Made by a program: the position numbers and the translations under genes
Notes under the pieces: generated by a model
What the model saw: the letters and a program-made list of their open reading frames with translations, nothing else
The model's database searches: none
Told to the model about the DNA's origin: nothing
In this document: positions 1,724 to 47,859 of the stretch, piece after piece
How positions within the stretch are numbered: position 1 is the stretch's first letter
How the letters are laid out: the number at the start of each line of letters is the position of its first letter
Source: Escherichia phage vB_EcoM_LNA6
Sequence record: OM630585.1
Reading direction: 5' to 3' (one strand)
Length of the DNA: 64,000 nucleotides

Positions 1724-2053
1724 CTAGTCTGCCAACCTTAAATTGAAATTAACACCAAATTTTTCACATACTTCCAACATATACTCAAGGGAAACATTAC
1801 CAGTGAGGTGGATTATGTTGGATACACGAGCCTGAGAGATACCACAAATTTTAGCAACTTGCTCTTGAGAAAGACCTCTTGATTTAATCTCTCTCTTAAA
1901 ACGATGTGCAACGAAGTCTCTCATTTCATCTACATCCATTGGACAAATATAACTCTCCATTTCAGCCTCTCTATCAGCCTCCCAATCATCTTGTGGGGCA
2001 TAAGGGTCAAAAACCTCATTCATCTTTCTTCTTCCGTTTGAGTGAAGTGTCAA
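1724..2053 (-). CDS. helix-turn-helix DNA-binding protein
   Basis: C-terminal GLSQEQVAKICGISQARVSNI resembles an XRE-type HTH. Confidence 0.5.
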   Translation of the reverse strand: MTLHSNGRRKMNEVFDPYAPQDDWEADREAEMESYICPMDVDEMRDFVAHRFKREIKSRGLSQEQVAKICGISQARVSNIIHLTGNVSLEYMLEVCEKFGVNFNLRLAD

Positions 2054-7231: not shown

Positions 7232-8035
7232 CTGGTCAATACACTCGCAAGGTGTACCAGTTCTCTTATGAACTTCTCCGCATTTCTACGGAGTGTCGGA
7301 CTATATCACGTAGTAGTAATACTACCGTTGCACTTGGGAATGGTCATTAGCTTACCACCCTACTCTACTCAGTTCATACATTAAGTATGCTTTTCGATAG
7401 TCTCTGAACGTTTCTCTGTTAGGAACTCTAAAATACTATTGTTTACTAAGGTATGCAATTGCTCTCTGCATATTATCAACGCTATCTGCAAGCAACCCCA
7501 AAGCCCTATTGCAATTGTGGCACAACATACCTCTTACTTTTCCGGTTTTGTGGTCATGGTCAACGACAAGTTTAGCCTTATGCCGTGAACTATTCATGAT
7601 AAAACCTTCACCGCCACAAATTTGACATTTGTAATCACAGTTACGGAGTAAGGTTTCAACCTCTTCTCTTTCTAAACCATATGTTCTCAGGTAGTAATTC
7701 TTAACTCTACCTTTCTCTCCGCAATGCGAAGAACAATAAACTTGCCTTGCTGTTCTAGGCATGAACACCTTCTCACAGCTAGGACATTTCTTAGTAAGAA
7801 CCCTATGTTCTGCTCTTCTGTCAAATTTTAATACGCAACTTCTGCACCGTTTTTGATTGTATTGGTATGGTTTAAACTCTGCACCACACTCAGTACACAA
7901 TCTCTCTTTGTAACCTGCCATTGTCTCTCCCCTTTGCTTTAGGAGTCCTAACAGAGACTTCGCTGCTGATTACCATATCTTTACAGACTTAGGCTTCCAG
8001 CAATTCACAACGTTTTACATGCGCCACTGACGCAT
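7232..8035 (-). other. putative group I intron in DNA polymerase gene (boundaries inferred)
   Basis: Polymerase reading frame is broken inside motif B; one junction obeying exon-U / intron-terminal-G rules gives ...KNGIY|VLFGAGDEK; contains HNH ORF. Confidence 0.45.
7436..7921 (-). CDS. HNH endonuclease (intron-encoded)
   Basis: 161 aa; multiple CxxC pairs plus DHDHKTG...HNCN HNH motif; lies between polymerase fragments. Confidence 0.75.
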   Translation of the reverse strand: MAGYKERLCTECGAEFKPYQYNQKRCRSCVLKFDRRAEHRVLTKKCPSCEKVFMPRTARQVYCSSHCGEKGRVKNYYLRTYGLEREEVETLLRNCDYKCQICGGEGFIMNSSRHKAKLVVDHDHKTGKVRGMLCHNCNRALGLLADSVDNMQRAIAYLSKQ

Positions 8036-10172
8036 AAATGCCATTCTTGGCTTTCTTACGACCCTTACTAATTTCTTGAAGAAGGTTTGTATCCTGAGTA
8101 GCTCGACAAGTCAAGATATCTTCCTCTTTATTAAGGCTGAAGTAGATGCTATTTAAAGTATGCGCATCAGTTCCTGAGTACACCACGTACAAGTCATTTT
8201 CAGAATCATAATGCAAATACTTGTCAATCTCTGGGTTTAGATACTGGTCAAAATGTTTGCAATAGTATCTGCCATCCTCTTGTTTGACAAACTCAACTTC
8301 TTCTTTACCCTCTGTCACTGCTTTGGTGAACTCTTTATCACCCATAAAGTTACACAGCAGTACAAGTTGCGCGCTATTCATATCTGCTGAAACAATATTA
8401 GTTCCTTCTTCACAAGTCCACACCTCCCTCATAGGTGCTCCATAGACAGCAGCACCAGACGGTACGTTTACAATACCATATTGTGTCATACGTCCAGTTG
8501 AAGTGCCAAACACCATTGCACCAGCACTAAGGCGACCATCAGGACGAATCTGGTTCAACCAACCTTTTTCATCATCCTTTGAGTTCTCAATAGTTCTGCG
8601 TCGGTGCATCAAAGTATAGTACTTAGCAATCTTCTGTCCAAGCTCACCTTCAATCGTATCATAAGATGATTCAGTAAGTTTTGGTGAAGTACGGATTAAG
8701 CAAGGTTCAAGCAAATCTGTGTATTTCTTCACAGACCAGTTATGCTCAATATACTGTACACCTTCGTGCTCAACATAGCTCAAACCACACCGCTCAACCA
8801 TTTCCTGCCACTTAGGATGTTTTGTAATCATCTTTTTATTGTCTTTGAAACGACAAACTTTGACAGGGCGACCATCTGAGTCTTTCTTGTAGTTCCAGTC
8901 ATCTGGAATCCAACCAACTGATTTCAAGTAGTCTTTAACAACTGCTACCTGAGTCATACGAGAAACTTCAAACTCAATTGGTGTATACGGTGCATCAATC
9001 AAACCTGTGTAGCGACTTGACTCAAGTTCAAAGTGGTTAACAACGTGACTGTTATAGTACTTCACAGTTTTGACTGTTTTTACTGGCTTCCAGTCTTTGC
9101 ATTTCTTACCAATCTTTGCATTCAACTCATTGCAAATTTCACGAGCATCCTTCATTGCTACAAAACCCTCCTTGTACTCTTCACCAGTTACAGAGTTGGT
9201 TGGTGTATAGCAATTTCTCTTTTCAATGTTAAAAATCTTTGTAGTTGGCTTACCAAATGGCTTGATTTCATATGTCTGCATCTCACCATTACGTACCTGC
9301 TGACGATACTTTGTCTTAGGGTACTTGGTAATCCTCTTCAGTCCATCTGCATGACCAAATGTTTCAACATACTCATTCCAAGCCCTTGCAAACTCTTCTC
9401 CAGTGACTTTACCTTTGGTCTTAATAGTTGGAGGAAGATGTGGTTCAACCTCTGAAGCAAGCTCATTAGTCAACTTGTCAAGTTCCTTTACATGGAACTC
9501 CATAAGCTCTTTATCAGCTTTCCAACCATTGATAGCTTGCTGGCTCATCCAGAAAGATGTCTCTTTAGCTCGCATGTAGGTTTCATAAGTGTCTATGCCA
9601 CACTTCTTAAGCTTGAGATACTCGTTATCAAGTGCCCGTTTAGTTTTGGTGTTAATACGGATATCTTCTACAACACGAGTGAAGATTTCTGCATTCCACA
9701 CACCCCAATGTTCAATCTCTGGTTTACGAACACCGACACGAGCACCCCATGCAGCCAAACCATGAGCACCTTTATAACCCCTTGGAGTTGGTCTATCCAT
9801 CCACTGAACACGAGACTGAATAAGAGAATCCTGAAAGAAATTACTCCACGGCTTACACTTTGGATTATCAAAGTTCCATAAATCAGGTGCAATGTGATTG
9901 AAAACCCACCAGTCATAACCGAGACCGTTATGGATGCAAAGACGTTTTGCCTTTAACGCAAACTCAACACCTTCACGTAAACCACCCTTAATGTACTTGG
10001 TATACTTGTGACCGAGGATAGGCTCATCTGTGAAGACCCATACAGGTGGCTCTTCATCGTCAGATTTATAGTCTGCAAAAGCCATTACGTGAACTTTAGT
10101 GAACTCAAGGAGTAAACCATCAGTCTCTGTATCACCAACCAAATGTAAGTTTTTAAAATCTATGTTTTCCAT
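8036..10172 (-). CDS. DNA polymerase (family A, T7-type), exon 1
   Basis: N-terminal DTETDG 3'-5' exonuclease motif; HGLAAWGARVG and NGLGYD resemble T7 gp5; tail KAKNGIY is first half of motif B; 3' boundary inferred. Confidence 0.7.
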
Positions 10173-10233
10173 TTTTTACTCCCTCTAAAACCATTAACCC
10201 CATACATTACTGCAAAAAATTATAAAAAGCAAG

Positions 10234-10290
10234 TTGACAATGCACTTGACAAGGTGTTAATCTTTGCGAAGTGGGTTTTTACTTAAAAGG
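10234..10290 (+). promoter_or_regulatory. divergent-junction promoter region with tandem TTGACA boxes
   Basis: agTTGACAatgcacTTGACAaggtgtt; same 25-bp motif recurs at 56139. Confidence 0.4.
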
Positions 10291-10430
10291 TTACTTAACA
10301 GTTTAACTATACAGATACTTTAAAACTCTTAAAAGATTATTTAATAGCTTTTAAAAAGCTTTAAAGTATAACGTATAGAATACGTTAAGATAAAAGATTA
10401 AAACTTAATAGTTACTTAAAAGAGGCTTAC

Positions 10431-10853
10431 ATGCAGAAAATGTTTGTTCACCCAGACATAGCTGACTTTGTTAGAGCTTTGCAGAAGTTGGAAGAACTTG
10501 ACATTGCTGCTCAACGGGAATATGCTCACCATCACAGGAGAATGGTTGATATACAACATGAAATAGAGTTGTCTGAAAACTATGAAGATGACTTAAAATG
10601 CTCTGTATTTGAGCATATGAAAGATGTTGCTACAGCGAGACGTAAAGCTAAAGACACAGTTGCTTTACTAGATTCTCTTAAAAAGAGGTTGCAAAGTGGT
10701 ACAGACTTGTGTAATCTAGCATCACTTATTAACGATGTTGAAACTTCTTGGGATAGGCACTATTATCCACGTTCTGAAAAGACACTTGACTTTTCTTCAT
10801 CAGAAAACTTAAAATGTTCTAGAAAGAAACTTAACCAACTGAGAGAGAAATAA
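10431..10853 (+). CDS. hypothetical protein
   Basis: 140 aa, first gene of plus-strand block after divergent promoter region. Confidence 0.4.
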   Translation: MQKMFVHPDIADFVRALQKLEELDIAAQREYAHHHRRMVDIQHEIELSENYEDDLKCSVFEHMKDVATARRKAKDTVALLDSLKKRLQSGTDLCNLASLINDVETSWDRHYYPRSEKTLDFSSSENLKCSRKKLNQLREK

Positions 10854-40876: not shown

Positions 40877-41662
40877 ATGGGTATTGTAAAAATCATCAAT
40901 GGGGATATCTTCTCCGCATTTGATAAAGGTAAGTTTGATATTATTGGTCACGGTTGCAACTGTATGAATTTAATGGGTGCAGGTATCGCTGACAAGATTT
41001 CTAAACTTTACCCAAAAGCATATGAGACCGATACAGAAGTTTATCTGTATGCAGGTGGCATAGGCCACAAACCCTGTGAAAATTTACTAGGGAATTTCTC
41101 TGTAGCACGTTTAGAACAAGGCCGTATAGCTAACCTTTACACACAACTTCATACTGGTAAAGATGCCAGATACAGTGCTTTAGAGTCATCTTTGAAGAAA
41201 CTTAACAGGTACTGTGAAGTCAATCAGTTGAAGAAAGTCGGGTTACCTATGATTGGCGCAGGTATCGGTGGACTAGACCCTCAAGCCGTCACAGTTATCA
41301 TTAATCAGGTGATGAAGAGTGTAGATGTTTATCTGTATGTCTACGAAGGAGAGATGTACCACAAGTTACGCTCAGGTTGGAATAACTACTGTGAACCAGA
41401 ATACTTTGCAGGTGTAGTAATGTTCACAGATGATACGGTTACCCTCTTCAGACGAAGAAAAGGTAAGATACATCAAAGTAACCCTCCGGTTGAAAAGATG
41501 TCTCTAAGTAACGCTCTAGTTACCCACCTGTCAAAGAGCAATCACAGAATTGCTGTAACATTTGGTAGTGATGCAGAAGCTTATATCTATGCAAGAACTG
41601 ATGAGGATATCGAGGCAATCTTCTCTTCACCAGAAGTTACCTTCTTAGACGCAAAGAACTAA
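40877..41662 (+). CDS. macro-domain protein (ADP-ribose binding/processing)
   Basis: 261 aa; N-terminal IINGDIF...IIGHGCNCMNLMGAGIA matches macro-domain core. Confidence 0.6.
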   Translation: MGIVKIINGDIFSAFDKGKFDIIGHGCNCMNLMGAGIADKISKLYPKAYETDTEVYLYAGGIGHKPCENLLGNFSVARLEQGRIANLYTQLHTGKDARYSALESSLKKLNRYCEVNQLKKVGLPMIGAGIGGLDPQAVTVIINQVMKSVDVYLYVYEGEMYHKLRSGWNNYCEPEYFAGVVMFTDDTVTLFRRRKGKIHQSNPPVEKMSLSNALVTHLSKSNHRIAVTFGSDAEAYIYARTDEDIEAIFSSPEVTFLDAKN

Positions 41663-41734
41663 GAAACTCTGTAGTATATTCACAATAGCCTAAGCCTTTC
41701 TTATCTGGTAAATTTTTCAGGTAAGGAGGGCTTT

Positions 41735-41935
41735 TTCATTTTAGAATTGTGCAGGTAGAGTTCTGTAGAGAAATCTGTAGAGAGAATTTTGAACTCCAAA
41801 GGGAAAATTCATTTTCAAACTGTGCAGGTAATCTCCAAAGAGCTTTTTCATTTTCAAAACGTGCAGAGAAAAATCAGGTCGGGCAAGAAAAATCATTTTA
41901 GAATTGTGCAGGTAGGTGGGGGTAGGTGGGGATGT
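41735..41935 (+). repeat. four direct repeats tttCATTTTnnAAnTGTGCAGGTA plus G-rich tandem ggtaggtgggggtaggtgggg
   Basis: Copies near 41735, 41808, 41846 and 41890 upstream of the early-array promoter. Confidence 0.5.
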
Positions 41936-42091
41936 CGCCATTTCTCACAAGGCTACCACATCCGAAAAGAAAAGTCAACAGAAAAATTTGTAGCGGATTG
42001 AAAAATAATTCTTGATTTGTGTTCTGTTTTGTGGTATTCGCGTGCGCCCGTTTCATTACATTTTTGCCAAAAATATTTTTAAAATTTTTTC

Positions 42092-42120
42092 TTGACTCTT
42101 TGAACGGGTTTTTATAGTAT
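42092..42120 (+). promoter_or_regulatory. sigma70-like promoter of early array
   Basis: TTGACT, about 15-17 bp spacer, TATAGT; 50 bp upstream of first early ORF. Confidence 0.5.
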
Positions 42121-42172
42121 TTGCATCAGACGGGGCGACAAGCCTAACAACCTTAAACTAGGAGATTCAAAA

Positions 42173-42553
42173 ATGGCATATCGTGCACCTAAATTCATCA
42201 ACAAAGACAACTTTCGCAACGCACTGGAGAAGTCACTTGATGAAAATTTTAAAGGTAACATTATCGTTGTTCACGCATTCAATTTTAAGTATGATGTAAA
42301 CGGGAATAGAATCAACCATTACACGGCAACCATGTTAGATGGTACACTTTCAAGTGAAAAAGCCGTACTAAATGCACTGGCAGGACGTGGAAAGGTATTA
42401 GTAAGATGTGATAAGAGACGTTATCAGGGCGGCGCATATGGTTATGATGATGCTGTTTACCATCTTGAAAATATGGGCTATCAAGTAGAAAAAGCTGGAG
42501 CATCACAAATCATCGGCAGCGATGGTTATGTAACTATCTTCAAAATTAACTGA
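42173..42553 (+). CDS. early-array small protein 1 (hypothetical)
   Basis: 126 aa; promoter TTGACT-N-TATAGT and conserved CTAGGAGATTCAAAA-ATG leader upstream. Confidence 0.45.
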   Translation: MAYRAPKFINKDNFRNALEKSLDENFKGNIIVVHAFNFKYDVNGNRINHYTATMLDGTLSSEKAVLNALAGRGKVLVRCDKRRYQGGAYGYDDAVYHLENMGYQVEKAGASQIIGSDGYVTIFKIN

Positions 42554-42555
42554 TA

Positions 42556-42642
42556 AAGTACTTTACAGGGGGCTTATAGTTCGATAAAGTAAGCCCCAGA
42601 TAAAGAGCTTTACCACTAAATCCTAAATTGGAGAACTTAAAA
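42556..42642 (+). repeat. early-array intergenic module, hairpin type
   Basis: gggggctta-loop-taagcccc hairpin + agataaagagctttaccactaaatcctaaa + GGAGA-N8-ATG. Confidence 0.6.
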
Positions 42643-42936
42643 ATGGCTATTATCAAAAACGTTGTAATTACTGCAAAGACTCGTGATGACGCTCGCGTTA
42701 TGGCTAAAAAGTTATGCGGGAAAGTGGTTGACAACGGAAAACAATCTGCTGTAAGGTGGGGCGTGAAGGTTGATAAACAGTTGAAGTTAAAAAATTCACC
42801 GATAAACCTTTTTACATGTGCAAACACTATCGGGAAGACAACTGTATACACGAAAAAGGCATACATTAGACGCGTAGCATTAACATCCCCCATTCGTACA
42901 ATGAGAAGTTATGCAAAGCTGAAAATTAACAAATAA
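42643..42936 (+). CDS. early-array small protein 2 (hypothetical)
   Basis: ATG after conserved leader; track start was an upstream TTG. Confidence 0.45.
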   Translation: MAIIKNVVITAKTRDDARVMAKKLCGKVVDNGKQSAVRWGVKVDKQLKLKNSPINLFTCANTIGKTTVYTKKAYIRRVALTSPIRTMRSYAKLKINK

Positions 42937-43021
42937 AGTACTTTACAGGGGGCTTAAAAGTTGATATCTTAAGCCCCAGATAAAGAGCTTTACCACTAAA
43001 TCCTAAACTGGAGATTCAAAA
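42937..43021 (+). repeat. early-array intergenic module, hairpin type
   Basis: Same stem and 3' leader as 42556 with a different loop sequence. Confidence 0.6.
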
Positions 43022-43534
43022 ATGAAAACTGTAGACGCTACCTTTGAAGTTGTAAAAGAAAAATTCACCATTATTTACGAAGCTGTCAATTGTTATGAAG
43101 CAAGCCATAATCTTGATAATTGGAAGTTTACAGATGACCATCAAGGCGGCGTGACTATTAAAAACCCCAATTGTCAGCGTAATGATTTTAAATATGCAAT
43201 CCCTTTAAATTATAGCCTTAAACAGCTTTCTAGTGACTATGCAAAACAAGGCCGGGAAAATCCATCAAAAGAGGCTTACGCAAGCTTACAGAAAGAACTA
43301 GAAAGAGATTTAGAGGCTTCAGAGTACAACCTTGCCGCGAAAGTTGTGGATGCAAACGGTAACACGGTTTTAGAAAGTTTTTATCTTGGTTATGCTTTCG
43401 ATTGGTGTTATCGTGACGGCGATGATTTAGAGGATAGACTAAAAGAAGAGGTGAACAACGCAGACGCAGAATCTGAAGTATTAGAACGTTTGGAATCATT
43501 GAAAGACTCAGTGATGAATATCTTTAAGAACTAA
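43022..43534 (+). CDS. early-array protein 3 (hypothetical)
   Basis: 170 aa after conserved leader module. Confidence 0.45.
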   Translation: MKTVDATFEVVKEKFTIIYEAVNCYEASHNLDNWKFTDDHQGGVTIKNPNCQRNDFKYAIPLNYSLKQLSSDYAKQGRENPSKEAYASLQKELERDLEASEYNLAAKVVDANGNTVLESFYLGYAFDWCYRDGDDLEDRLKEEVNNADAESEVLERLESLKDSVMNIFKN

Positions 43535-43626
43535 ATAGATTTCTTTACACGGGGTTATCAAGCTGGTAGGATAGCCCCAGATAAAGAGATTTATCAAATA
43601 AAGCCCTTAAACTAGGAGATTCTAAA
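43535..43626 (+). repeat. early-array intergenic module, diverged hairpin type
   Basis: cacggggttatc...gatagccccagataaagag... followed by conserved leader. Confidence 0.5.
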
Positions 43627-43923
43627 ATGAAATTATCAAATCAAGTGCGTGAAAATTTGAGCAAATTACTCAACAAAATTGATTTCATTGAAACATCAAG
43701 GAATAGTCATGATGTTATGGAATGGTTACACGGCAAAATAAAAGGTCGTCGTGTAGTGATTTGCTTATGGAATAGCTGCAGGGAGTATAAAAAACCTGTA
43801 TTGCAAGTCAATATTTATGATGACACCTTTAAAAGTCCTGTAAAGTCTAAAAGCGATTTATTAGAATCCTATGAGATAACTGTAAATGGCAAAGTATCAC
43901 GTAAAGAGGAATCGCCATGCTGA
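43627..43923 (+). CDS. early-array protein 4 (hypothetical)
   Basis: 98 aa after conserved leader module. Confidence 0.45.
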   Translation: MKLSNQVRENLSKLLNKIDFIETSRNSHDVMEWLHGKIKGRRVVICLWNSCREYKKPVLQVNIYDDTFKSPVKSKSDLLESYEITVNGKVSRKEESPC

Positions 43924-44249
43924 TGATTGGTATCACTGCAACCATTGCCATTTTCGCGCTATATAAGGCATATAAAGCCTATAATCTAGCAAATAAGGCA
44001 ATCACACAACAGGTTAGCAATAACCTTGTAGGGAGCTTTCTAGAGCGTTTAAATGATGAGCAAATAAAGCGGCTAGAGATGAGCTTCAGATACAAAGCGA
44101 AAACCTATCAGATAAGTGACATCTTCAAAGATGATTTTCAGTTAGTTGATGATTATAATTCTCTGATAAATGCTTTAAATATCAGTGACTTAAAAGACTA
44201 CTACGCTGTAATTGTTCAAGAATTGAGCAAACGAAAACAAAGTGTTTGA
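43917..44249 (+). CDS. early-array protein 5 (membrane, hypothetical)
   Basis: 110 aa, N-terminal hydrophobic helix; start overlaps previous stop. Confidence 0.4.
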   Translation: MLMIGITATIAIFALYKAYKAYNLANKAITQQVSNNLVGSFLERLNDEQIKRLEMSFRYKAKTYQISDIFKDDFQLVDDYNSLINALNISDLKDYYAVIVQELSKRKQSV

Positions 44250-44274
44250 CACTGGTTTTTAGATAGATTAAATT
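44246..44274 (+). promoter_or_regulatory. sigma70-like promoter inside module
   Basis: TTGACA, 17-bp spacer, TAAATT. Confidence 0.5.
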
Positions 44275-44340
44275 ACACATCAACGGGGAGGGAATGACCT
44301 TCCCCACTAAATAAAGTCCTTAAACTAGGAGATTCAAAAA
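44250..44340 (+). repeat. early-array intergenic module, promoter type
   Basis: TTGACActggtttttagatagatTAAATT + atcaacggggagggaatgaccttcccc hairpin + conserved leader. Confidence 0.6.
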
Positions 44341-44613
44341 ATGTATACTACTAACAACGGTCGTACTTTAAATGTCACTCTACGTCACTATGTAGATGGT
44401 GTAATGTGCTTTGAGGATTTACAAGCTGAGCAACATATCTTAAATTGGCAAGTAGCAGGACTCCAAAAAACTACTACCGGATACGGTAAAAAGATTCCAA
44501 CCAGTTGGAAAGTACACTACGAAGGGCGTTTGCGTAGAATTTATCAAGATGTTTGTAGCAATAGCGCATCGAGTTACATCATGGTAAAAGGTAAAAAGCT
44601 GCATTTAGTGTAA
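44341..44613 (+). CDS. early-array protein 6 (hypothetical)
   Basis: 90 aa after promoter-type module. Confidence 0.45.
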   Translation: MYTTNNGRTLNVTLRHYVDGVMCFEDLQAEQHILNWQVAGLQKTTTGYGKKIPTSWKVHYEGRLRRIYQDVCSNSASSYIMVKGKKLHLV

Positions 44614-44698
44614 AGTACTTTACAAGGGGTTTATAGTTCGATAAAGTAAGCCCCAGATAAAGAGCTTTACCACTAAATCCTAAATTGGAGATTCTAAA
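44614..44698 (+). repeat. early-array intergenic module, hairpin type
   Basis: Near-identical to 42556 module. Confidence 0.6.
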
Positions 44699-45103
44699 AT
44701 GGCTATTAACAACCGTGAGTTATCAATCTTAAAAGCGCGTTTGACCGTTAACCGGATTAATGTTATCACGTCATCATCACCGGACGAAACATTACACAAC
44801 ATTATCGGGAAGATTCAAAGTATTATCTTAGACGTTGAAAATGTAAAAAGCTCATTGGCTGACGTTGCAGCAGGTATCACGCTAGACGGCGCACAATATG
44901 AAATGGTTGACATGTTAGGCAAATCGAAGGTAATGAATAAAGAGCTTGATTTAAAAATGTTTCGATTTGCCGTGAAAGTATGGTTATCTGTCGAGTATGA
45001 CGCTAATTTTGCAATCGCTGATTTCTTTGCCACTTGGTTACAACGTAATTTGACAAATCATGATTTTCGTGATGTCTGTGATGCAATTTATGCAGAACTC
45101 TAA
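44699..45103 (+). CDS. early-array protein 7 (hypothetical)
   Basis: 134 aa after hairpin-type module. Confidence 0.45.
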   Translation: MAINNRELSILKARLTVNRINVITSSSPDETLHNIIGKIQSIILDVENVKSSLADVAAGITLDGAQYEMVDMLGKSKVMNKELDLKMFRFAVKVWLSVEYDANFAIADFFATWLQRNLTNHDFRDVCDAIYAEL

Positions 45104-45204
45104 AAAATTTTGTTGACACTGGTTTTTAGATAGATTAAATTACACATCAACGGGGAGGGAATGACCTTCCCCACTAAATAAAATCCTAAACTGGAGATTC
45201 TAAA
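45104..45204 (+). repeat. early-array intergenic module, promoter type
   Basis: Near-identical to 44250 module including TTGACA-N17-TAAATT. Confidence 0.6.
45113..45141 (+). promoter_or_regulatory. sigma70-like promoter inside module
   Basis: TTGACA, 17-bp spacer, TAAATT; identical to 44246 copy. Confidence 0.5.
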
Positions 45205-45408
45205 ATGGCTATTATTAACGGCTTACACATTGAAACAACTCACATCAAAGATATTAAAGTTGGTGATGTAGTCCTTTCCCACGGCGTAGAGAAAACTGTC
45301 ACTGCAAAGGATATCAAAGAGGACTCTTTCATGGGTAGGACTCTCTTCGGTGATTCTTATTGCTTAGGTTATCTTGCAGTTTTAAAAGTTGTCAAAAATA
45401 ACAAATAA
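45205..45408 (+). CDS. early-array protein 8 (hypothetical)
   Basis: 67 aa after promoter-type module. Confidence 0.4.
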   Translation: MAIINGLHIETTHIKDIKVGDVVLSHGVEKTVTAKDIKEDSFMGRTLFGDSYCLGYLAVLKVVKNNK

Positions 45409-45495
45409 AGTACTTTACAGGGGGCTTGGAAGTTGATATCTTAAGCCCCAGATAAAGAGCTTTATCACTCAATCCTTAAACTAGGAGATTCAAAA
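45409..45495 (+). repeat. early-array intergenic module, hairpin type
   Basis: Same stem as 42937 module with variant loop. Confidence 0.6.
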
Positions 45496-46038
45496 ATGAA
45501 ATGCTATCACGGAACTACTCAAGAAAATTTCCTCAACCTGATTAATAACGGTGATAAACCATCAGGCGCATGGAATTGTTCGGATATGGACGGCAATTTT
45601 TACGTGTATCCAGAAAATAAAATCTATGGCGACGATGAGGAAGAGATAACATCAGAAGGCATCCAGCAAGCTCTAGGCAATGCCACTATCACCGCAGCTT
45701 TTCAGATGAAGACTCAAAATATTGTTATCTTAGAACTCGATATTCCAGAGGATGAGCTGAATGACGATTATTCTTGTGATAATATGTCGAGTGTAGCAAG
45801 TTTTACAGAGTACTTTGATGTAAATTGGATTAAAAAGGTCTATACAACAGAGTTTAACGCTATGTATTCACCTTTTTGTCTTCCTTCATTGGATAACCCA
45901 AATTTAAACTATCTTGATGAGTCTCTGGAGCTTCTTGCTAAAAGTGTTCAACAGTCGGACAGTATTCAGGTTTTTTGTGACATCATGGACACGCTGACAG
46001 GAAACATCACAGAAGAGGATTTAAAGAGCTTTTTCTAA
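45496..46038 (+). CDS. early-array protein 9 (hypothetical, acidic)
   Basis: 180 aa after hairpin-type module. Confidence 0.45.
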   Translation: MKCYHGTTQENFLNLINNGDKPSGAWNCSDMDGNFYVYPENKIYGDDEEEITSEGIQQALGNATITAAFQMKTQNIVILELDIPEDELNDDYSCDNMSSVASFTEYFDVNWIKKVYTTEFNAMYSPFCLPSLDNPNLNYLDESLELLAKSVQQSDSIQVFCDIMDTLTGNITEEDLKSFF

Positions 46039-46070
46039 AAACCTACACAATCACCTTATAAACACTGATT

Positions 46071-46091
46071 AGCCCCTTGTAGGGGCTTTTA
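46071..46091 (+). terminator. intrinsic terminator
   Basis: agccccTTGTAggggct + TTTT. Confidence 0.5.
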
Positions 46092-46104
46092 GAGGGCTTA
46101 AATC

Positions 46105-46338
46105 ATGCTAACAACCGTTTATCTCATCCTCTCAATTTGTAATGGCCATTCATGTGACTTTAAAGGGCTTGAGGAGTTCACAGGAAGTAAAGAAAATGCT
46201 ATTCAAGTTTGCCAGATAGCAAGACAAGACTATCCCGCCAGTGATGATATACAATGCTACTTTAAGACAGAAGATGAAGAAGGAATCTATTTCGACAGTG
46301 TTGATGGTCAATATGAAATTATCATTGAAAAAGACTAG
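46105..46338 (+). CDS. early-array protein 10 (hypothetical)
   Basis: 77 aa; preceded by terminator-like hairpin rather than a full module. Confidence 0.4.
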   Translation: MLTTVYLILSICNGHSCDFKGLEEFTGSKENAIQVCQIARQDYPASDDIQCYFKTEDEEGIYFDSVDGQYEIIIEKD

Positions 46339-46430
46339 ACAAGCCTGATAAAAGTCTGTAAATTGTCAATCAACGGGGAGGGAATGACCTTCCCCACTAA
46401 GTAAAGTCCTTAAACTAGGAGATTCCAAAA
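46339..46430 (+). repeat. early-array intergenic module, promoter type
   Basis: gtaaattgtcaatcaacggggagggaatgaccttcccc + conserved leader. Confidence 0.55.
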
Positions 46431-46772
46431 ATGGCTTATGTAACCGTAGTAACCGATAAAGCTGGCTCATCTTGGTCAACTCAGGTTAGTGATAAGATGT
46501 CGCCTATGCAGTGCCTAAAATACTTTGAACAGTGGAACAAAGGCGAGGACACAAGCCCCTTTCAAGTGATGCAGATTATCCATGTAGACAACGAAGGGAA
46601 GAAAACAACTCTGAATAGTGAGTACTATGCAAGCCGTTTTGAAACGAGAAGTAAAACAATGAAGCTTCTACGTGAATCCGGTTATACCCATATCGCCGCG
46701 TTAATCTGGGATGACCTGATAAAAAGTCAACGTATCAGTTATGTAAAGCCTGAAAAAATATTCATCAGTTAA
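46431..46772 (+). CDS. early-array protein 11 (hypothetical)
   Basis: 113 aa after promoter-type module. Confidence 0.45.
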   Translation: MAYVTVVTDKAGSSWSTQVSDKMSPMQCLKYFEQWNKGEDTSPFQVMQIIHVDNEGKKTTLNSEYYASRFETRSKTMKLLRESGYTHIAALIWDDLIKSQRISYVKPEKIFIS

Positions 46773-46904
46773 TCAATAACTTACAAAAAACTTTTAAAAA
46801 AGTGTTGACAATACCCCTTGACATTGGTAACTTTGTTCGAGGGGGTTTATCTAAAAGGGATTAACTTAAAAGATTCTTTATAGATAAGCTTAAAAAATTG
46901 CTTG

Positions 46905-46992
46905 CAATCAGCTATCAAAACAAGTAAATTACTAATCAACGGGAGGTAATAGCCTCCCCACTAAACAAAGTCCTTAAACTAGGAGAGTCAAA
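46905..46992 (+). repeat. early-array intergenic module, promoter-type variant
   Basis: gtaaattactaatcaacgggaggtaatagcctcccc + conserved leader; compensatory changes keep the hairpin. Confidence 0.5.
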
Positions 46993-47523
46993 ATGAACAA
47001 GTTTAAAGCTATCAACTTCATTCGTTCAAATGCTGTAATGTCAAAACCTGTAAAAGACACATACGAATTTCGCTGCAATGGGGTACACTTTGCAACCATC
47101 ACTAAGTCAGAAAACGGGGCTTATTACATTCATCGCCGTAATGTTTCTACTGTTGTAGTCTCTCACTTTATGCAAGCTGTAGCGGAATTATTGCCGTTAT
47201 TCTTAGAGATTTATCTAGATGAGTGTAAAAACGTTCACAACCACGTTAAAAACCTTTTAAACGGTTATAAAATGGCTTATGAACGTTCTATCAAGTCGCT
47301 AAACAAGTTCTATAAAGCCCCTGAAAATACTGTATCAATAGCTTATGATGTAAGCGGTGAAATGGTCAACCTCTCCAATGTAGAACAAATTGGCCTTTAT
47401 GACTCACGTCCTAGCGGTTACTCTAAGACACTGGGAGAAGGTTTATCTTTCAATATCAAGAACTTAGAAAAAACTTTAAAAGATATTGAAAAAGATATTG
47501 ACGAAACAATCAAAAGTCTGTAA
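46993..47523 (+). CDS. early-array protein 12 (hypothetical)
   Basis: 176 aa after module variant. Confidence 0.45.
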   Translation: MNKFKAINFIRSNAVMSKPVKDTYEFRCNGVHFATITKSENGAYYIHRRNVSTVVVSHFMQAVAELLPLFLEIYLDECKNVHNHVKNLLNGYKMAYERSIKSLNKFYKAPENTVSIAYDVSGEMVNLSNVEQIGLYDSRPSGYSKTLGEGLSFNIKNLEKTLKDIEKDIDETIKSL

Positions 47524-47602
47524 ATTGTCAATCAACGGGGAGGGAATGACCTTCCCCGCTAAACAAAACCCTTAATCAACTTCCTAAACTGGAGATTCTA
47601 AA
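47524..47602 (+). repeat. early-array intergenic module, promoter type
   Basis: gtaaattgtcaatcaacggggagggaatgaccttcccc + leader. Confidence 0.55.
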
Positions 47603-47851
47603 ATGGCTACTATCCGCGCAACTGTTAACGAATTTGGCTTCTACTCTCTGGACGTTAAATTTGACCTTGTAGGTACTGATAACGCCTTTGAAATGGTGAA
47701 AGGCCTTATCAGCCAGACCATCAGTGACTACAACCCCTCTGATGAATTCTGGAAAGAAACAAAAGAGGAAGTTCTCAAAGAGGGTTATACATACCACTAC
47801 TGGGGTGAAAAAATTGTCTCCTTGTACTACGACAAAGAAGGCACTAACTAA
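47603..47851 (+). CDS. early-array protein 13 (hypothetical)
   Basis: 82 aa, last gene of array, followed by terminator. Confidence 0.45.
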   Translation: MATIRATVNEFGFYSLDVKFDLVGTDNAFEMVKGLISQTISDYNPSDEFWKETKEEVLKEGYTYHYWGEKIVSLYYDKEGTN

Positions 47852-47859
47852 ACGCCGCA

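Follow-up and report, generated by a model that had tools for sequence, protein, structure and literature searches.

Introduction

What is the role of a short sequence that stands four times, always in the same direction, in the non-coding gap before the small-gene array of a Felix O1-like phage? The question arises at positions 41735–41935 of a 64,000-nucleotide stretch of Escherichia phage vB_EcoM_LNA6 (record OM630585.1), the whole of which is called the window below. The original prediction, made from this sequence alone, described four direct repeats and a G-rich tandem upstream of an early-array promoter, and proposed either an operator or enhancer array or tandem promoters for a non-sigma70 polymerase. 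A megablast search with 41000–43000 returned 250 phage records at 92–95% identity, nearly all of them Felixounavirus, identifying the window as part of a Felixounavirus (Felix O1-like myovirus) genome. Phages of this genus have Salmonella, E. coli and Shigella as hosts; the Felix O1-like phages, classical tools of Salmonella typing, are nowadays frequent in biocontrol products and in model collections (BASEL).

The repeats behave like a selected cis-acting site: their number, order, orientation and spacing are kept across four genera of the Ounavirinae, far above the neutral level. Our reading of what the site does is tentative: it is possible that the repeats form an oriented protein-binding array acting on transcription at the junction between the upstream operon and the early array. 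Lying at the exact seam of two transcription units, beside the terminal early-gene array, the repeats offer a handle for experiments, whether as a probe for a binding protein, as a defined deletion target or as a landmark for genome engineering; insertions at this place may not be neutral. The interest of the site would be considerably higher should it prove to be an origin or a DNA-entry checkpoint.

Four oriented repeats at a single locus

The repeats occupy a 510-bp non-coding gap between a macro-domain gene and the small-gene array. The motif TCATTTT-N5-YGTGCAG starts at 41736, 41809, 41848 and 41893, each time on the plus strand. A search of the window with TCATTTTNNAANTGTGCAG, allowing up to two mismatches, gave exactly four matches, against 0.09 expected by chance, and none of 100 shuffled sequences reached four. 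The four direct repeats within 200 bp were therefore borne out by both the pattern search and the shuffles. The copy at 41848, with one mismatch, deviates from the consensus first given, having CGTGCAGAGA in place of TGTGCAGGTA in its 3′ part. A separate repeat search extended the unit to 34 nt (41721–41754, 41794–41827, 41833–41866 and 41878–41911) and added a degenerate fifth copy at 41960–41993, the core part of which is 41975–41993.

The individual copies were delimited by combining the pattern and repeat searches. Repeat 1 (41721–41758) has the core TCATTTTAGAATTGTGCAGGTA at 41736–41757, and the same core is found at 41893–41914 in repeat 4 (41878–41914), 45 nt after repeat 3. Repeat 2 (41794–41832) consists of the left arm CTCCAAAGGGAAAAT and the core TCATTTTCAAACTGTGCAGGTA, repeat 3 (41833–41866) of the left arm CTCCAAAGAGCTTTT and the core TCATTTTCAAAACGTGCAG, and the two form contiguous 39-nt units of the type CTCCAAAG-R-G-W5-TCATTTT-N5-YGTGCAG-GT. 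Between repeats 1 and 2, a mini-motif read from the sequence, TCTGTAGAG, occurs twice (41762–41770 and 41774–41782, plus strand), and Suspvirus and Mooglevirus have related CTGKASAG motifs at the same place. Downstream, the degenerate fifth repeat TCAACAGAAAAATTTGTAG (41975–41993) is followed by TTGAAAAATAATTCTTGATT within a conserved block at 41967–42017, also on the plus strand, which shows a cross-genus identity of 0.85.

The search for the motif elsewhere in the complete genome, which the original prediction had proposed, was run on the window together with positions 1–45000 of the bumzen record, jointly a complete genome. With up to one mismatch, the core was found at this locus only.

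The repeats and the first promoter of the small-gene array

A promoter does exist at 42092. The hexamers first named, TTGACT...TATAGT, would be separated by a spacer of 15, and the promoter scan instead supports TTGACT-N17-TAGTAT (42092–42120, plus strand), a sigma-70-type promoter of which the −35 hexamer and TA(G/A)TAT are kept in relatives. An A/T-only tract of 22 bp, AAAAATATTTTTAAAATTTTTT (42069–42090, plus strand), lies directly 5′ of the −35 hexamer and resembles an UP element; among the full-length aligned loci, a set that does not include Erwinia phage phiEa104, its core AATATTTTTAAAA is invariant and the flanking A's are near-invariant. Comparable A/T tracts are also present 5′ of other promoters of the small-gene array. 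The repeats are on the upstream side of this promoter, as was claimed, and “immediately” describes their position loosely: the whole block 41721–41993 (∼270 bp) sits 110–390 bp upstream, with the end of copy 4 about 180 bp, and copy 1 about 355 bp, from the −35 hexamer.

The copies are upstream of, and co-directional with, the genes of the small-gene array, as would be expected if they were themselves tandem promoters at which a phage-modified or non-sigma-70 polymerase starts to read into it. We consider this second proposal of the original prediction highly improbable. The motif occurs at no other locus and is therefore not a promoter class, and Felix O1 is reported to have neither an RNA polymerase of its own nor known specificity factors (PMC3185647). 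Furthermore, a scan of 41400–48400 for sigma-70 hexamer pairs 16–18 nt apart found none in 41735–41935 on either strand, the first being that at 42092, and the −24/−12 element of sigma-54 is unmatched, with CTGCAC instead of TGGCAC and no TTGC. In parallel, the copies were compared by eye with the consensuses for sigma-54, the DnaA box, IHF, Fur, ArgR, CsrA, boxA and ops, and none fits all four copies.

Conservation across four genera

The layout of four full copies and one degenerate copy is present in Felixounavirus, Suspvirus, Mooglevirus and Kolesnikvirus, so that the motif, far from being absent from relatives, is found in four genera of the Ounavirinae. In IMG/VR, 26 loci (Felixounavirus, Suspvirus and Mooglevirus) code for a protein closely or moderately related to the macro-domain protein. 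Every one of them shows the copies at the same place in the genome and in the same order and orientation, with spacings of 73–77, 39–41 and 45 nt; the macro-domain protein itself is 63–69% identical in Suspvirus and Mooglevirus. At the same place in Erwinia phage phiEa104 (Kolesnikvirus), where the flanking macro-domain protein is 44% identical, there are four copies of W5-TCATTTT-N5-YGTGCAT spaced by 37, 37 and 39 nt, and beyond copy 4 come a C-run tract, then a degenerate fifth copy and finally a sigma-70 promoter with its UP-like tract.

Segment identities were calculated between the window and Suspvirus/Mooglevirus. The CTCCAAAG arms are the most conserved, at 0.97–0.98 (0.97 in repeat 2 and 0.98 in repeat 3), followed by the repeat cores at 0.86–0.89 (0.86 for repeats 2 and 3, 0.89 for repeat 4). 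The spacers reach 0.51–0.69, the −35/−10 region of the first array promoter 0.68 and the third-codon positions of the adjacent gene 0.51–0.57. The repeats are thus conserved above the −35/−10 hexamers of the first promoter and above every flanking stretch measured in the gap. A repeat identity of 0.86–0.98 compared with 0.51–0.57 at third-codon positions indicates that the repeats, together with their order, orientation and spacing, are under strong purifying selection. Conservation is concentrated in the blocks CTCCAAAG, TCATTT and GTGCAG, with freely varying spacers of 5–7 nt between them. Short conserved blocks separated by free spacers are the usual pattern for base-specific contacts about one helical turn apart.

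The same comparison bears on a neutral origin. The units are similar to the terminator that precedes them, in its 3′ arm and U-tract (GGGCTTTTTCATTTT), and they could in principle be a relic of tandem duplication of the terminator 3′ flank. Conservation at individual positions, which across the four genera far exceeds that of synonymous sites and spacers, strongly disfavours such a relic and makes it extremely unlikely.

Together with the fifth-copy block and the first promoter, the repeats evolve as a single non-coding module of ∼390 bp that is conserved and under strong purifying selection. The repeats stay linked to a terminator on one side and to the first promoter on the other despite swaps of the upstream gene and terminator or of the first downstream gene. 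In ‘finno’-type felixounaviruses (loci L009 and L058), an unrelated gene of 780 bp, which brings its own terminator, stands where other members have the macro-domain gene and terminator; repeat 1 is kept and abuts the new terminator, repeats 3 and 4 are kept and repeat 2 is lost. In these phages, the TCTGTAGAG pair is replaced by a palindrome, ATCTGTA...TACAGAT.

Beyond these loci, a blastn search with a 206-bp block of the array matched 293 phage records, all of Ounavirinae type, and gave no match in plasmids. A pattern scan of IMG/VR returned multi-copy hits only in Ounavirinae contigs and in a few unchecked contigs of ∼84–90 kb. The longer repeat strings were not found in literature text, the 31 matches obtained there being to a chance 11-mer, and the array is not mentioned in the Felix O1 genome paper, which lists other direct repeats. 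Those of 57 and 39 bp (Whichard et al., 2010) are likewise intergenic direct repeats in the same neighbourhood. They differ in being dispersed promoter/5′-untranslated region (UTR) hairpin modules between the genes of the small-gene array, whereas the present repeats have another sequence, are clustered at one site and go unmentioned in that paper. The array therefore appears to be previously undescribed, although of a familiar kind, namely a binding array of oriented direct repeats within the control region of a phage.

The G-rich tandem belongs to a hypervariable tract

The G-rich tandem is present after the repeats, as predicted. It consists of 2.1 copies of GGTAGGTGGG at 41911–41931 (period 10, 100% matches in Tandem Repeats Finder) and overlaps the 3′ end of copy 4. 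It is not part of the conserved element: alignment shows that it represents one allele, the G-form, of a hypervariable tract (41911–41966, plus strand) that exists in two alleles, the tandem of the G-form varying in copy number. In about half of the relatives, an unrelated C-run form (...CCCCTCTCCCCCTCTTACTCCCCCTCTCCCC) replaces the G-form, and the identity of the tract after repeat 4 to Suspvirus/Mooglevirus falls to 0.36. The C-form is carried by Felix O1, other felixounaviruses, Suspvirus and Mooglevirus, with a looser form in phiEa104, and because of this distribution it is probably the ancestral allele. The two tracts do not represent the two orientations of an invertible segment, since their reverse-complement local alignment scores 13 compared with 12.4 ± 2.2 for shuffles.

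In our view, the tandem is a by-product of a fast-evolving homopurine/homopyrimidine spacer and would lie outside the repeat system. On the minus strand, the C-form makes a canonical G-quadruplex motif of four runs, and no stretch scanned had another one; the four-run C tract is seen in Felix O1, SUSP2, Mordin and others (8187 in locus L003, 1489 in L007 and 1448 in L010). The window has no canonical G-quadruplex motif, and in place of the C tract its allele (tract at 41915–41966) carries a two-tetrad G-run on the plus strand. The RNA made from the C-form, C-rich and G-poor, would suit the loading of Rho on read-through transcripts.

A similar arrangement was observed at 2738–2795, where the minus strand reads a terminator, G/T-rich tandems (GGTTAGGTATGG-like), an A/T tract and a sigma-70 promoter (TTGACA). 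These tandems resemble the GGTAGGTGGG tandem and the intergenic layout parallels that of the repeat locus; the bumzen record has a repeat_region in the equivalent intergenic stretch.

Coding and RNA functions

The gap does not encode a protein, since indels of 2 and 4 nt between genera and the non-homologous biallelic tract break every reading frame. In most records, the region either has no annotation or is covered by short hypothetical ORFs; several place “hypothetical proteins” over the repeats at 41741–41941 and 41749–41901 (Sl26 CDS0100–0102, Bas63 gp96/gp97, EcSzw2_16 and Mordin gp014). The short open reading frames (ORFs) annotated across the repeats vary in strand and extent between GenBank records; as their frames are not conserved, these annotations are almost certainly spurious, and the database annotation can be corrected accordingly. 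The text of the Bas63 PhageMaP study has no data for gp96/gp97, which overlie the array.

A known or structured RNA was likewise rejected. The best Rfam hits scored 12–22 bits against gathering thresholds of 47–197 (E > 2), the fold signal on the plus strand is essentially that of the terminator, and shuffled sequence folds as well as the minus strand (z = +0.84). These results bear on a further explanation, in which an antisense or non-coding RNA, started at a weak leftward promoter, would cross the repeats from copy 4 to copy 1 and reach into the macro-domain gene at its 3′ end, and the repeats would be RNA motifs. The candidate promoter pairs TTGACT (reverse complement of 41973–41978) with a TG-extended TAGCCT (reverse complement of 41950–41955) across 17 nt. 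Its AAAAGTCAA is invariant in the full-length aligned loci, phiEa104 lacking AGTCAA at the matching place, and the “TA” of its −10, 17 nt away, is among the few positions kept in both alleles of the hypervariable tract. We regard such a transcript as very unlikely, given that the −10 is poor (TAGCCT here, TAAGAG in the C-form) and below the pass level of the promoter scan; moreover, apart from the absence of a minus-strand fold or Rfam match noted above, no terminator was found for it.

A proposed protein-binding array at the transcriptional junction

The data establish a selected, oriented, single-copy, non-coding element, and its block conservation is the usual signature of a protein-binding array; a control site at which a protein docks is thus very probable. 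The proposed operator or enhancer array is compatible with these findings and is the leading reading: the part that stands is a selected cis-acting site, and we infer protein binding and an effect on transcription from the sequence features.

According to the preferred reading, 41721–41993 would carry five sites, four full and one degenerate, that are oriented alike and recognised by a sequence-specific DNA-binding protein. This protein may be encoded by the phage, for example the HTH_3 protein at 1724–2023 (minus strand), or may be a conserved enterobacterial factor. Cooperative occupation of the sites would build a nucleoprotein complex at the junction of operon and early array and act on transcription there. 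Such a complex could insulate the early array from read-through of the upstream operon, as a roadblock behind the terminator; from its upstream position, it could also activate or silence the first promoter. The invariant linkage of the repeats to a terminator and to the promoter module supports this proposal, as does the presence in the genome of the HTH_3 (Cro/CI-type) regulator (99 amino acids, phrog_1373), the sole recognisable transcription factor among 19 window ORFs scanned and the annotations of three relatives.

Several known control regions at which small DNA-bending regulators bind 3–6 direct, oriented sites upstream of a strong promoter are comparable, namely the P2 Cox boxes, the lambda Xis sites and the Fis sites at rrn P1. 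Like the present locus, they combine a promoter that has an UP-like A/T tract with short conserved blocks and free spacers. They differ from it in that W5-TCATTTT-N5-YGTGCAG fits none of their consensuses, the promoter here is further off and no cognate protein is known.

A number of points weigh against this reading. The search for a binding protein among the neighbouring ORFs revealed no DNA-binding or Rep domains, and nothing ties the HTH_3 protein to the sites. Dimers of the XRE type usually prefer palindromes, and the sites in the array are asymmetric and direct. The site centres, at about −147 to −382 from the presumed start, are far away for a classical operator, and the ‘finno’-type phages manage with three copies. 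The small-gene array has about ten promoters and the repeats precede the first one only; because the other promoters lack the motif, the repeats cannot control the early array promoter by promoter, and in this form the control first claimed does not hold. The literature search yielded no transcript or binding data for any member of the Ounavirinae. Finally, occurrence once per genome is less usual for the sites of a transcription-factor regulon than for an origin, a packaging site or a DNA-entry site.

A possible replication origin or DNA-entry site

The last of these points leads to a different class of explanation, in which the array would be a once-per-genome DNA-handling site, either a T5-like entry stop or an origin of the Ounavirinae, rather than a transcription-factor operator. 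Taken as a class, we judge this to be doubtful but within reach of the evidence; an entry stop, or an origin with an unrecognised initiator, would be the first for the Ounavirinae.

As an iteron-type origin, the repeats would be iterons for an initiator encoded by the phage, or for a host factor; negative supercoiling, or transcription from the strong promoter, would assist initiation, and 42069–42090 would be the unwinding region. The locus is single in the genome and holds four or five direct, asymmetric repeats of one orientation in a large non-coding gap shielded by a terminator, as in iteron-type origins, where three or more direct repeats of ∼17–35 bp share one orientation at a single locus. 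An invariant A/T tract and a strong promoter are adjacent. An iteron cluster also has a precedent in a lytic myovirus, T4 oriE with repEA/repEB. The resemblance to iteron arrays in general (lambda ori, P1 oriR and T4 oriE) extends to several asymmetric repeats of ∼20–35 bp running in the same direction at a single non-coding locus, next to an A/T tract and an active promoter.

Other properties of the Felix O1-like array set it apart from these systems, and on balance we hold an origin at the repeats to be unlikely. The spacing is irregular, at 39–77 bp, where classical iterons are phased regularly at ∼22 bp. Three annotated relatives offer a primase/helicase, a polymerase, a ligase and an exonuclease only, with no recognisable initiator gene, remote homology having been searched less than exhaustively; the replisome is T7-like, with a primase/helicase and a PolA-type polymerase, a type that classically works without an iteron-binding initiator. 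The A/T tract resembles the UP elements at the other promoters of the small-gene array and appears not to be among the least stable DNA of the genome. Over windows of 100–150 bp, the repeat region reaches only the 91st–93rd percentile of helix instability, and the stability minimum is elsewhere, the least stable DNA being found at 10.3 kb, in a divergent region by the DNA polymerase gene, and around the terminal repeat. The GC skew simply tracks gene orientation and is uninformative as an origin marker.

The divergent gap at 10172–10431, between the DNA polymerase gene (minus strand) and a rightward block starting at 10431, is the least stable and most A/T-rich in the window. It carries tandem TTGACA hexamers, with the primase/helicase gene ∼2 kb downstream, and is an alternative candidate for a replication origin or for the main early promoters.

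The position of the array relative to the genome end raises the other possibility, a pause or stop site for DNA entry like the injection stop signal of phage T5. The 7 kb at this end, made up of the terminal repeat and the small-gene array, would be the first DNA to enter the cell and to be expressed; entry would then stall where the repeats meet a membrane- or channel-associated protein, until an early product releases it. The terminal block, from 41735 to 48910, measures ∼7.2 kb of ∼87 kb, or ∼8%, close to the 7.9% of the genome that makes up the first-step-transfer region of T5 (Davison, bioRxiv 10.1101/866236). It is packed with small genes that have their own sigma-70 promoters and are transcribed toward the terminus, and it is bounded internally by a conserved non-coding repeat region. 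As in T5, these non-coding repeats are conserved above the neighbouring ORFs, and the site is single-copy, as the function would require. Both systems therefore have conserved untranslated repeats at the inner edge of a terminal segment of small early genes (the stop signal, or repeat region 3, in T5).

The anatomy of the two regions is otherwise dissimilar. The T5 region, ∼1 kb long and enclosed in a terminal repeat of 10 kb, consists largely of inverted repeats and palindromes and has eight DnaA boxes (Davison, bioRxiv 10.1101/866236), whereas the present array covers ∼270 bp outside a 0.6-kb terminal repeat and is built of direct repeats. No TTWTNCACA was seen on inspection of 41650–42130, the closest sequence being TGTGCAGGT with three mismatches to TGTGNAWAA, and the repeat search gave weak inverted repeats only and no large ones. 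Homologues of T5 A1/A2 did not turn up either, although no search was aimed at them. Moreover, two-step transfer has not been reported for the Ounavirinae in the literature searched, and there is no evidence for two-step injection in Felix O1-like phages or for entry of the array end first. An entry stop of the T5 kind is in our opinion improbable.

The genome ends

A genome terminus, concatemer junction or pac site was suspected first at the repeats, because felixounaviruses have terminal repeats of ∼0.6 kb and the TH10 record breaks in the gap. Terminal repeats of 613 bp in Ro111lw (PMC6454146) and of 581 bp in Pr103Blw (PMC8303462) were determined with PhageTerm, and the Felixounavirus UAB_69 has a direct terminal repeat of 618 bp (PMC11350853, Fig. 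S1). The last of these aligns over its full length, at 86% identity, with 48318–48910 of the window, and the Ro111lw record begins at window position 48320. The terminus therefore maps 6.4 kb to the right of the repeats, which rules it out at the array and leaves the repeats ∼7 kb (∼8% of the genome) from one end. The TH10 record and four metagenome contigs of ∼89 kb begin or end in the equivalents of 41947–42077 (in loci L004/L005, L018–L020 and L032). These breaks fall in the repeated promoter modules, which probably interrupted assembly, and are therefore unlikely to be true termini.

The terminal repeat, viewed with its flanks (48325–48410, 48714–48857 and 49289–49360), is packed with short GTTAAGA and CTTGTTA(G/A) repeats, a further array of 5.9 copies of TTGTTAGAAGGC lies just outside, and the genes on both sides are transcribed toward the terminal repeat. 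These repeats are plausible terminase-recognition or concatemer-processing sites, a reading suggested by the fact that this group is without a known small terminase subunit.

Flanking genes and the small-gene array

Upstream of the repeats, the macro-domain “phosphatase” gene (40877–41662, plus strand; Pfam Macro, E = 1.2e-7), a homologue of Felix01p025, closes a long rightward operon that runs from rIIA to macro. The records of relatives name it phosphatase or O-acetyl-ADP-ribose deacetylase, and in Felix O1 the counterpart of the gap is 7915–8423, from ORF13 (the macro-domain “phosphatase”) to ORF15. An intrinsic terminator was located at 41692–41733 (plus strand) by terminator scan and RNA fold; it has a hairpin of 17 pairs and then TTTCATTTT. 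Repeat 1 overlaps both the 3′ arm and the U-tract of this terminator; among the aligned relatives, the 5′ arm varies with pairing kept and the 3′ arm is nearly invariant.

Downstream, the small-gene array opens with an ORF of 126 amino acids at 42173–42553 (plus strand; ORF list and a profile match to phrog_4495, function unknown). This first gene differs among relatives and the promoter module in front of it stays. It is followed by a run of small plus-strand ORFs, each behind repeated promoter/5′-UTR modules, and these small genes are presumed to serve host takeover. Over 42550–47530, two kinds of repeated intergenic module alternate. The first has a TTGACAC...TAAATT promoter and then a GGGGAGGGAATGACCTTCCCC hairpin, and in the second a TTTACA promoter overlaps a GGGGCTTA...TAAGCCCC hairpin. 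Every module ends in a common CCTTAAACTAGGAGATTCAAAAATG ribosome-binding region, and the modules match the 57-bp and 39-bp repeats reported for Felix O1.

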